A program made the position numbers and the translations under genes. A DNA stretch of 64,000 nt from Candidatus Spongiisociaceae bacterium (lineage in GTDB: Bacteria > Actinomycetota > Acidimicrobiia > Spongiisociales > Spongiisociaceae). How positions within the stretch are numbered: position 1 is the first letter of the stretch; each line of letters starts with the position of its first letter. Where the stretch lies: the NCBI GenBank assembly GCA_965202665.1, contig OZ241841.1, forward strand, positions 416,001 to 480,000. The letters run 5' to 3'. Shown in pieces: positions 40,900 through 49,283 of this stretch. The notes under the pieces were generated by a model, which was not told the DNA's origin, did no database searches, and worked only from the letters and a program-made list of their open reading frames with translations.

Positions 40900-43663
40900 T
40901 CAGGATTGAAAGATTTGCTGGGATGGGGCGACGGCCTCGTGGGCGTGTTGCAAAAGGTTGTTCCAGGAAACAATCAGCGAATTATAAGCCACCGCATCCT
41001 CAGTGCGACCGGCTCCGTTGGCCACCTCATACAGCAAGTAGGCCAGATGACGGGCGTAGTCGCCCAAACCCGGTCCCGCCCGAGCCAGCAACACCCCGGC
41101 CTGGGCATCCGACCTGCCCTGGCGGGCCACCAAATGCTGAGTGAGCTCCCACACCGTCAACCGCCGATCCTCCGCCGGATCCCACTCCGGATCCAACTCA
41201 TCCCTGGTCAACAACCGCACTCGGCCCCCTTTGGATTCCGCCACCTCCGCCTCCACCACCCCCGACACTGACGTGTTCATCGCCTTCGCCAACGTCTCCG
41301 CATCCCCAAACGGACCCGGCTGATGACCGAACTGCCGATACCAGGTAAGGGCGAACCTGCTGTCGGCATCCAAATCGGTCTCCTCCTGGGACAGGATTTC
41401 CTCCAGCACCCCGTTAATCAGAGCCAGGGCGGTGCGTACCCGCATCGTGGAACCGTCTGCTTCCACCACCCGCTTATACCGGGAGAACACCCGCATACCC
41501 GGCCCGATAGCCGACTGCGCCATATCCACCGGCGGGATAGCCTGCTCCTGCAACAAACCCACCGCCTCCGGCAACTCCTCCCGCAACGCCGCCAAAAACC
41601 CACCCCGCGTCTCCAACCGAGCATCCACCCCCCGAGGCCGACAAGCCAACACCACCGACGACGACAACGCCGCGGCACCCTCGGCCACCGCCCGATTCGC
41701 CATCTCAGTTCGAACCGGCCAAGTCGCAGTAACCTCTAACCCAGCATCCACCAAGCCCTGCAAAAACGTCTCCCAACCGGTAGATGTTGTTGTCCCCTCT
41801 TTTATTTCCTGCTGTTTGAAACCATAAAAAAGGGTTGACGGAAAGTCGGAATGTTGATTTTGGGCTATCTGTTCCATTACTGCCAACATCCCCGACTCAA
41901 AATGTTTCCTCGCGTCATCTTGGGAACCTGCTCTCCAAGTATTAGAAACCAACTCATCTTTTTTTGGCGTCTGCAAGGTAGCACACTCATCCGGCCACAC
42001 ATCCGACAGATTATGACGAAGCCACACATAGAAAAAATCAGATATATCCGCATACTGAATATTGTCATAGTAGGGAGGATCAGTGCAAACAAGCGGTCTC
42101 TCCACTTCAACCAACCGAGCTGCCGCATCCCGTTGTAAAATCTCCCCAATATCGGAAGCTGGAAAATGAGCAACAGCCTTCGCTACCCAGTTCACCTGCC
42201 CCAGCCAGTTACCAGTTGATCCAGAAAATGGATTAACCTCAGCATAATCCCAAATCATCGCTATTGCCTGCCTTCCGAATGTACAACGGATTTTTTCGGA
42301 TCTGTTTTGCCAACTGCACACTGAGGACCAGTAATCGGCGCACCTATCAACTGCGAAAGCCAAATAGGTAACCAACGCATCAGCATACGCAACTACGCCC
42401 AACCCACCATCACGAACCCTTGTTCCATCATCAATCCACCCAACATTACGAATATCCTGCTCAACCTTCTCTCTCAATTCGGATAACAAATCGGAAAAGG
42501 TCGTCAAAGCAACCAACTGACGAGAAGTAAACAAATCACCCCACTCGGTCATACCATACGCAGGAACACTGTCAGTAGCTTTTCCTTGTAACTTACCAGA
42601 TGGCCTCCATCGTGGCTCCGGAACATCCGGTTTTTCAGGTGGCGATACGTACTCGCGACCTCTGCTCCCTTCAACTACAGCACCTATACATTCTTCCCTC
42701 ATCAATCCACGCTGACCCTGCTCCCTTACATATCCGAGCGCAATCGGCGCTCCGGTCGCCACGCAGATGCCTCCTCCCCTGGCGATGGTGCCTCCCTTTG
42801 GAGTTCCGCCTTCCCTCACCTGGTAGGTCACTGTTTGGGTGTCCCGGTTCACAATCGGTTCTACCCACACCACCGGCTTGCCCGGCTTGTTGCGCAGCAC
42901 CCCAGATTTGAGCAGGGGCACATGGCCTTTCCAGGACGGGTCGGGGGACTGGACGGTCCTGGCCCACAACCAGGCAATCACCGTTTTGCCATCCACCTTT
43001 GGGTATAGATGGCCTATTTGTTCCCACGCCCGCTCCCGCATCCACTCTCCGTAGTATCTGATGTCCTCGGCTAAACCCTGCGCACCCTTCCAAGTCTTCA
43101 ACCCCGACTCCCCACGGCTGACGGGATTGACCGGGGGCCGTCCCGCGAAGCGAGGCGGAATCTCCACCATCGCCTTTGTTATCAAGACGGGGACGGGGTT
43201 TAGATCGCCCCCGTAAGCGGACAGGCCCAACCGTTGGGCCTCTAGTGGAATCGTCCCGCCGCCGCAGAACGGGTCCAAGACTTTGATGTTTTGGAGGGCT
43301 TTTAGATGGTTAGTGTGTGTGTGTGTGTGTGTGTGTTACTACACTATTTATGATTTCTTGACGAGCCTCATCCAAAACATCCTGATCGTTGCTACTCTCC
43401 CAACGCACCAACCGTTCCAGAACGCCGAACAGACGCTTGCGCTCAATCTTCTGGTCTTCCACCGTTGGGAAAACATCCGGACGGGAAGACGGATCATCCA
43501 CCAGCGACGCCCACAACACCGCCCGCGCCGCCGCCAACGGACGACGGGCCCACCACAAATGCAAAGTCGAAGGATGGCCGTGACGAATAGACTTCTCGCG
43601 GGCCGACTCCCGGCTTATCACCTCCAACGGCAACGCCACCTCAATAAGTTTCCTTTTTTTCAA
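40900..43663 (-). CDS. DUF1156-family amino-DNA methyltransferase copy C, frameshifted at an (AC)12 tract (phase OFF)
   Basis: TTG start with [24 protein letters not shown]-domain stops at TAA after [15 protein letters not shown]...DPPYY continues in another frame. Confidence 0.9.
43313..43336 (-). repeat. (AC)12 dinucleotide SSR inside MTase copy C
   Basis: (GT)12 on plus strand; 13 or 10 units would restore the frame. Confidence 0.97.

Positions 43664-49283: not shown

Follow-up and report, generated by a model that had tools for sequence, protein, structure and literature searches.

Why should a bacterium keep three paralogous methyltransferase genes head to tail, with long simple repeats in the coding sequences of two of them? 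The question is raised by a locus in a 64,000-nucleotide stretch of the genome of a Candidatus Spongiisociaceae bacterium (contig OZ241841.1, positions 416,001 to 480,000; hereafter the window), where three tandem minus-strand hmaB genes, encoding DUF1156 methyltransferases of the Hma (Type-1 BREX-related) system, are flanked by rsmI and a DUF222-HNH gene. In the assembled sequence copy A is on, copy B is fixed on and copy C is off. The explanation that we favour, and hold to be moderately probable, is that these genes belong to a slippage-switched library of hmaB specificity subunits for one shared HmaA/HmaC core, which would be served in trans by the copies that stand alone.

Copy A (46494..49283) starts with ATG and encodes 929 amino acids in frame. 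Its repeat, (CAACA)12 at 48909..48968, lies in frame within the linker that leads from the DUF1156 helical bundle to the first Rossmann strand, and a change of one or two units in either direction truncates the protein at 124–131 amino acids. Copy B (43728..46430) starts with TTG, encodes 900 amino acids and is repeat-free, so it is not switchable by slippage. Copy C (40900..43663), again with a TTG start, is frameshifted at (AC)12 (43313..43336), in a linker that matches the repeat position of copy A, and yields a product of 117 amino acids as assembled; the frame 3′ of the repeat is open for about 800 codons, and 10, 13 or 16 AC units would restore a protein of about 920 amino acids. The earlier note on this DNA had described three tandem paralogs of about 900–930 amino acids, two with a long repeat in a shared linker and one without. 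The repeats are as it stated and the lengths are right for A and B, but C attains such a length only across the frameshift.

The remaining features that it had listed were all recovered. Motif I reads DPFCGGG in all three copies (48843..48863 in the translation of copy A), and motif IV is DPPY in A (47658..47669) and C and DPPH in B (44874-44885), where a short deletion also lies ahead of the helix GWE. The A–B spacer (46431..46493) and the B–C spacer (43664..43727), 63–64 bp long, each carry a GGGAGG ribosome-binding site followed by TTG; there is none ahead of copy A. The C-termini are 97% (A/C), 87% (A/B) and 85% (B/C) identical with a G+C content of 0.63–0.65, in contrast to the divergent cores (residues 297–535), where identity falls to 62%, 58% and 77% respectively and G+C to 0.45–0.54. 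In copy A this variable core (47679..48395) is a predicted target-recognition insert, placed as in the BR methyltransferases (PMC12839542).

An assembly artefact, which the earlier note had named as a possible source of the triplication, is ruled out because run X1, which like X2 may stem from the source sample, covers the unique core of each copy at an equal depth (120–126, with 113 for the flank) and contigs from two other studies (X4 and X11) bridge the junction between the end of B and the start of C; in all, contigs of three studies cross the B–C spacer. Identical core pieces are present in runs X3 and X7, again from other studies; for the A–B junction, no spanning contig was seen among the pieces listed. 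Contig ends in X1 lie 34 letters beyond 43301 and 38 letters ahead of 43345, which fits 12 AC units as the dominant allele. The host is probably an acidimicrobial (Acidimicrobiia) sponge symbiont, because the closest hmaB loci are titled Ca. Spongiisociaceae or Acidimicrobiales and run X5, labelled sponge metagenome, contains close relatives; Ca. Spongiisociaceae is a family of the Acidimicrobiia. The exact linker pattern of copy C gave no matches in metagenome contigs, and a protein search of such contigs returned 44 loci without a close full-length relative (full-length matches 43–50%); these served as a control.

The PADLOC HmaB profile PDLC00660 scores 1019 bits with A (residues 2–925), 974 with B and 879 with the 3′ part of C; PF06634 (DUF1156) is matched at E about 5e-30 in A and B, the copies covered by the domain scan, and the 5′ part of C is 83–86% identical to theirs. 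Scores with NCBIfam NF042963 (DUF1156_antiphage) are 106–126 bits, below its curated cut-off of 1000. PADLOC gave no match to PglX for A, B or C, the flanking genes are unrelated (pglZ was not searched genome-wide), and the set of pglX, pglZ and brxC that would place the locus in phage growth limitation (Pgl) or bacteriophage exclusion (BREX) proper is not present here. Hma has been described as a Type-1 DUF499-centred BREX-related system, made up of an SNF2 helicase-nuclease, a DUF499 ATPase and a DUF1156 N6-methyltransferase in which the recognition insert is nested (PMC12839542). The genes of the window resemble that system (PMC12839542; PMC11232893) in their full-length HmaB matches, DUF1156 head, nested-insert methyltransferase and apparent helical tail, and the operon itself is found elsewhere in the genome. 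They differ from the three-gene arrangement as described in that hmaB is multiplied, mostly repeat-bearing and partly detached; methyltransferase duplication, frameshift or slippage finds no mention in the main text of PMC12839542.

No hmaA or hmaC is present at the array, whose flanks are rsmI on one side and the DUF222-HNH gene and tatD on the other. By tblastn, the 2.77 Mb genome (G000) has six hmaB genes, five of them with repeats, but only a single close hmaA and a single close hmaC. A complete hmaA-hmaB-hmaC operon lies at G000:C1:2602656-2612227, about 2.1 Mb from the array; its hmaA (SNF2 and NOV_C domains) and hmaC (HEPN and DUF499) are intact, and its hmaB, copy F (C1:2606192), is frameshifted at a C12 tract just after the ATG, leaving 12 amino acids as assembled. 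Copy D (C1:331831) is out of frame at a G11 tract in the linker that carries the repeats of A and C, and copy E (C1:390963) is out of frame at a G15 tract at motif I and has an inserted element resembling an insertion sequence. Copy B is thus the sole repeat-free hmaB of the genome. The switchable methyltransferase cassette of the earlier note is thus not self-contained: it is one part of a set that extends over the whole genome, alongside one hmaA and one hmaC. The four on/off states once foreseen become up to 16 when A, C, D and F are counted. With hmaB off and its neighbours hmaA and hmaC intact, the operon would suit a system whose restriction activity requires the methyltransferase.

Are the repeats switches? 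A search of 61 genomes with copy A found matches in 19, from which 34 full copies were examined, fragmentary and distant matches being left out; a second set comprised 34 copies from four Acidimicrobiales genomes (G061–G064), one G062 copy being left out. The relatives are kin and hence not independent, and the counts are given without P values. Repeats occur in 45 of the 68 copies, which come from more than ten related genomes. In the close-relative set the units are CAACA, AC, AACA/AAAC, GA, AG, G and C; 16 of 34 copies are frameshifted, all of them repeat-bearing (one, L048, in a noisy assembly), and all 14 repeat-free copies are intact. In the Acidimicrobiales set 25 of 34 copies have repeats, 16 are frameshifted, each stopping shortly after its repeat, and the repeat-free copies are again intact (9/9). 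DUF1156 genes with repeats in this linker, which the earlier note had suggested seeking in related genomes, were found: the matching linker of L030 carries (CAACA)16 in frame, compared with 12 units in copy A, and P0004 has a C-type linker in frame with a TH repeat (read from protein only). Proteins of relatives tolerate such in-frame, repeat-coded inserts in the linker, examples being TH, SNPIQ, TQPNP, SL and RE in P0004, P0005, P0006, P0015 and P0029. Outside this group the tracts are rare. Of 79 loci in a wider set, 73 could be read at the 5′ end; among these, long tracts are present in 7 of 14 from Acidimicrobiia (one near a contig end, two already counted in the other sets) versus 1 of 59 others, and the metagenome-locus control showed any repeat in only 2 of 51 copies, neither in the linker. 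Of 120 listed homologues, 28 start past the linker, and all 28 belong to the 40 hits with at least 64% identity. Little weight attaches to them: they are known from protein only, contig ends may account for some, and a ranking by score conceals distant hits that are truncated.

The repeats are also distinctive within the genome. Perfect repeats with a unit of 2–6 and at least 8 copies number only three genome-wide, all in or at methyltransferase genes: two are those of A and C, and a different DNA methyltransferase gene carries the third at its 5′ end, which argues against chance. Runs of G or C have a bimodal length distribution, with 96 of length 8, 1 of 9, none of 10, 24 of 11 and 28 of 12; 75 have a length of 11 or more and there are almost none of 9–10.

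These data bear directly on a less elaborate account, in which the copies are decaying duplicates whose frameshifts are ordinary mutations or sequencing errors. Turnover does occur, as seen in the element inserted in copy E and in 51 bp left over from the 3′ end of one more hmaB (40835..40885, minus strand; identical to the corresponding ends of the three copies at 45–47 of 50–51 letters), the trace of a copy gained or lost, and long homopolymers are error-prone. Yet frameshifts are confined to repeat-bearing copies in both sets (32/32, with 23/23 repeat-free copies intact), the G/C runs are bimodal and the X1 contig ends fit 12 AC units. Furthermore, the ratio of non-synonymous to synonymous substitution (dN/dS) among A, B and C is 0.04–0.20 in all regions, with off copy C included, so that every region is under purifying selection. 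Decay or error is therefore most improbable, and reversible slippage very probably switches the repeat-bearing hmaB genes.

What would such switching achieve? In a structure model of copy B (predicted local distance difference test, pLDDT, 88), HmaB has a Rossmann methyltransferase domain with motif I, a large insert after strand 2 and then motif IV, followed by a helical region (665–890); the repeats of A and C map to the loop joining the DUF1156 helices to the first Rossmann strand. The most variable parts of the protein are three short segments at about residues 358–380 and 450–476, both in the core, and 660–680. In the model a beta-hairpin that follows a helical bundle forms part of the second, and the third corresponds to a loop modelled with low confidence. 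Among 43 close homologues, the 55 pairs with C-terminal identity of at least 95% have median identities of 43%, 44% and 62% in the three segments, and correlation between segment and scaffold is weak (Mantel r 0.05–0.23). Because the three segments reassort among copies whilst the scaffold is kept, there are strong grounds to infer that the copies recognise different target sequences. By analogy with Dam-like enzymes, we infer that the variable segments read DNA. The suggestion in the earlier note of independent repeat switches, probably with different specificities, is well supported by this comparison with relatives.

A different function for a phase-variable HmaB would be to act on RNA, or to sense DNA or phage molecules by binding, with no role in DNA-adenine specificity. 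A fold search with the model of B returned a Rossmann core dependent on S-adenosylmethionine, and the best structural matches were the tRNA m2G methyltransferases Trm11, Trm14 and TrmN (Z 15–16); PMC11232893 reports likewise, and no methylase-like effect on T4. Also in favour of this reading, motif IV is DPPH in copy B and DLPY in two copies of G061. A sequence profile search gave one weak tRNA methyltransferase match, and Foldseek against the PDB gave nothing at E 0.001 or better, with weak Dam rows at E 0.11, which does not exclude the family. However, the tRNA methyltransferase match is limited to about 175 residues of the common Rossmann core and does not establish the substrate, both PADLOC and PMC12839542 place the family with the N6-adenine DNA methyltransferases, and hypervariable, reassorting segments suit sequence recognition. 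We therefore regard such a function as improbable.

If the copies do act on DNA, they might act alone or with the Hma core, and the gene layout of relatives is informative on this point. G061 has 12 hmaB genes, G063 has 10 with intact 5′ ends plus fragments, G064 has 6 and G062 has 7, and each of these genomes has one close hmaA and one close hmaC. Seven hmaB genes lie between one hmaA and one hmaC in both G061 and G063, and two do so in G001; in G062, hmaA-hmaB and hmaB-hmaC are at separate sites, and the hmaA of G004 is no longer accompanied by an hmaB of its own, which has been lost. Both hmaA and hmaC were found in all 10 multi-copy or repeat-bearing genomes tested, and hmaC in all 5 further genomes with a lone-looking hmaB. 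Each multi-copy genome examined retains at least one repeat-free hmaB. In the close-relative set repeats are present in 14 of the 16 copies that stand alone, compared with 6 of the 18 that are linked to an operon. A genome of the same genus, with seven hmaB genes, has a single repeat-bearing hmaB at the rsmI-tatD site (L031), and the triplication is therefore lineage-specific.

Two observations on the arrays themselves may be added. Within the seven-gene array of G061, two hmaB genes at L150 (G061:C2:254372-260126) combine DLPY with a degenerate third variable segment and are possibly inactive members. Two adjacent repeat-free hmaB-like genes are found in unrelated taxa at L121, L139, L184, L187, L191 and L205, so doubling of hmaB inside the operon is not restricted to Acidimicrobiia.

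The main alternative is that lone copies methylate without HmaA and HmaC, as solitary phase-variable regulators of the phasevarion type or as protective methylases. Several features would suit it: 16 of the 34 copies in close relatives have no hmaA or hmaC inside about 8 kb, the lone copies are diverged from the operon copy and form two separate clades of their own (Shimodaira–Hasegawa-like approximate likelihood ratio support 99 and 98, in a quick, unrooted tree of recombining sequences), the motif order of HmaB is like that of Dam-like alpha-class enzymes, which act alone (PMC12839542; compare the weak Dam rows above), and the genome is rich in repeat-switched surface genes, a typical setting of phasevarion hosts (PMC5909438). 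Against this, the same repeat-bearing copies form arrays of seven inside hmaA-hmaC operons, lone copies without hmaC occur in none of the genomes tested, all domains are under purifying selection, the C-terminal helical region included, and nearly every other repeat-switched methylase of the genome belongs to a restriction system. Solitary action is thus possible but rather unlikely; because copies in relatives sit within the hmaA-hmaC operon, the evidence favours a role as specificity subunits in defence over that of a free-standing phasevarion.

On the specificity-subunit reading, repeat slippage in the 5′ coding region would toggle A and C on and off, and the HmaB copies would be interchangeable recognition and methylation subunits serving one HmaA helicase-nuclease and one HmaC ATPase. 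The PglX protein of BREX is by itself responsible for the specificity of methylation as well as of defence; it depends on the other subunits and is functional when supplied from a complementing plasmid (PMC11341690; bioRxiv 2024.04.12.589305). By analogy, each HmaB copy in the on state would add one motif, at which the host's own DNA is methylated and incoming DNA that lacks the mark is restricted. Defence specificities would then be mixed within a population, and cells in which a different copy is on would stop phage released from cells of another type.

A number of observations weigh against this scheme. In the one experimental study, HmaA alone protected against T4, and overexpression of HmaB left T4 infectivity unchanged (PMC11232893); the literature covered demonstrates methyltransferase activity for no HmaB. 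The analogy with PglX is indirect, HmaB being BrxXI-like rather than PglX-like, and the closest folds are those of tRNA methyltransferases, as noted above. Lone copies descend from operon copies, so their co-occurrence with the core is not independent evidence. In the C-terminal domain, identity to operon copy F reaches just 57–60% for the three copies of the array; this is not decisive, since copies inside one operon can be as low as 61%, although the operon copies of G000 and G001 share 84%. Copy B, the only copy that is fixed on, may be weak or inactive given its DPPH motif, which is found in 4 of 115 homologues with a readable motif; DPPH together with the deletion is retained in P0007–P0010. 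Finally, poly-G tract lengths may be miscalled by one base, and mixed repeat lengths were seen in no single sample, the public-run data being contigs, from which minor length variants are dropped and which are unable to show them.

The gene downstream of the array invites one further proposal, that a lone hmaB and the DUF222-HNH nuclease form a local restriction-modification unit. A DUF222-HNH gene follows all five lone loci in G001 and two of three in this genome, the array among them, where it lies at 38804..40129 on the minus strand. However, the genome has eight such genes, the other six of which adjoin unrelated Type II, IIG, III or other defence loci; the gene has a promoter-like site of its own (TTGACA-17-TAGAAT at 40179..40207, minus strand, sigma70-like with 11/12 positions, a consensus match only); DUF222-HNH is not apparent among the open reading frames listed beside lone copies in the other genus; and an intact nuclease next to an off methylase would be lethal were the two partners. 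Such a unit is accordingly very improbable, and the DUF222-HNH gene is probably a separate element that marks defence loci. All eight copies, the one in the window and those at seven other G000 sites, are within a few kb of a defence locus, and their spread may be tied to defence islands. Identification of the protein as IscB was rejected, as it scored 24 bits against a cut-off of 175 and the match covered only the HNH domain. Between the array and the promoter of this gene lies a spacer with a 71-bp tandem repeat in 2.5 copies (40548..40724, strand not assigned). Beyond it follow tatD (37565..38371, minus strand) and rsmA-ispE-glmU-prs; on the upstream side rsmI (49298..50119, minus strand; Pfam TP_methylase and RsmI_C) ends 15 bp from copy A.

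How does the preferred reading, a switched library of specificity subunits, compare with known systems? In the Pgl system (Type-2 BREX) of Streptomyces coelicolor, also an actinobacterial host, a repeat in the methyltransferase gene pglX switches defence (PMC4365076). There, however, one gene with one G8 tract turns the whole system on or off and the methyltransferase is of a different family; here there are many copies with varied units and probably different specificities. Inversion and duplication of BREX-1 pglX (PMC9881135; bioRxiv 2024.04.12.589305) similarly vary the specificity methyltransferase whilst its ends and the core remain constant, but a recombinase picks one variant at a time, whereas the hmaB genes would switch independently as whole genes, making combinations possible. 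The phasevarions of Type III mod and Type I hsd genes (PMC5909438; see also PMC7383803 and PMC7394358) share with hmaB both 5′ coding repeats, pentanucleotides included and several per genome, and conserved ends around a variable recognition region. The mod enzymes are of a different family, with up to four per genome, each in its own system (PMC5909438), in contrast to up to twelve hmaB per core. Repeat switching is thus known for pglX and for Type I and III systems, and multi-copy switchable HmaB is apparently new: no report of repeat-switched or multi-copy HmaB was found in the literature searched, subscription papers being mostly outside its range.

A broader proposition, that Acidimicrobiia symbionts have made Hma combinatorial, and more than once, by pairing one core with a dispersed library of up to a dozen hmaB genes with their own slippage switches and shuffled loops, is one for and against which the case seems to us evenly balanced. 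If true, a single population could occupy tens to hundreds of states of defence and methylome, and so vary the DNA sequences that are marked and attacked. Natural arrays of differing, separately switched hmaB genes around one core also argue for HmaB as the carrier of specificity, and their alleles are a ready set for assigning recognition loops to motifs. Restriction systems are enriched in sponge actinobacteria (PMC12008989), and the present data show that uncultured marine symbionts, too, make heavy use of contingency loci, both in restriction systems and in surface proteins.

Contingency loci of other kinds abound in the genome. Repeats lie in or at Type III mod, Type IIG, Type I hsdM/hsdS and N6_N4 methyltransferase genes (L050, L051, L052, L054, L058, L062, L063 and L067), with (GA)28 at a methyltransferase-Mrr fusion among them. 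Three tandem Type IIG restriction-methyltransferase genes with a C11-13 tract in each (L059, G000:C1:1212000-1231999) appear to form a second tandem array of switchable defence genes. In a second, distant BREX-related system (L057, G000:C1:1925537-1934235), a C11 tract splits the helicase-nuclease and not the methyltransferase. Genes of the PADLOC candidate PDC-M33A have G12/C12 tracts at their 5′ ends at L053 and L060, and that at L060 is split. The sequence TTGACA-N4/5-G11-13-TAGCGT occurs at 24 sites (for example G000:C1 7174, 486774, 1013917, 1460524 and 2626546) that are probable poly-G spacer switches; 23 are ahead of large secreted-looking proteins with signal-peptide-like starts, an S-layer homology (SLH) domain being confirmed for one, and one is ahead of a methyltransferase-HNH gene. 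Within the window, 53486-54772 on the plus strand holds a low-G+C open reading frame of 428 amino acids with a Thr-rich repeat, for which Pfam, PADLOC and NCBIfam returned no match.

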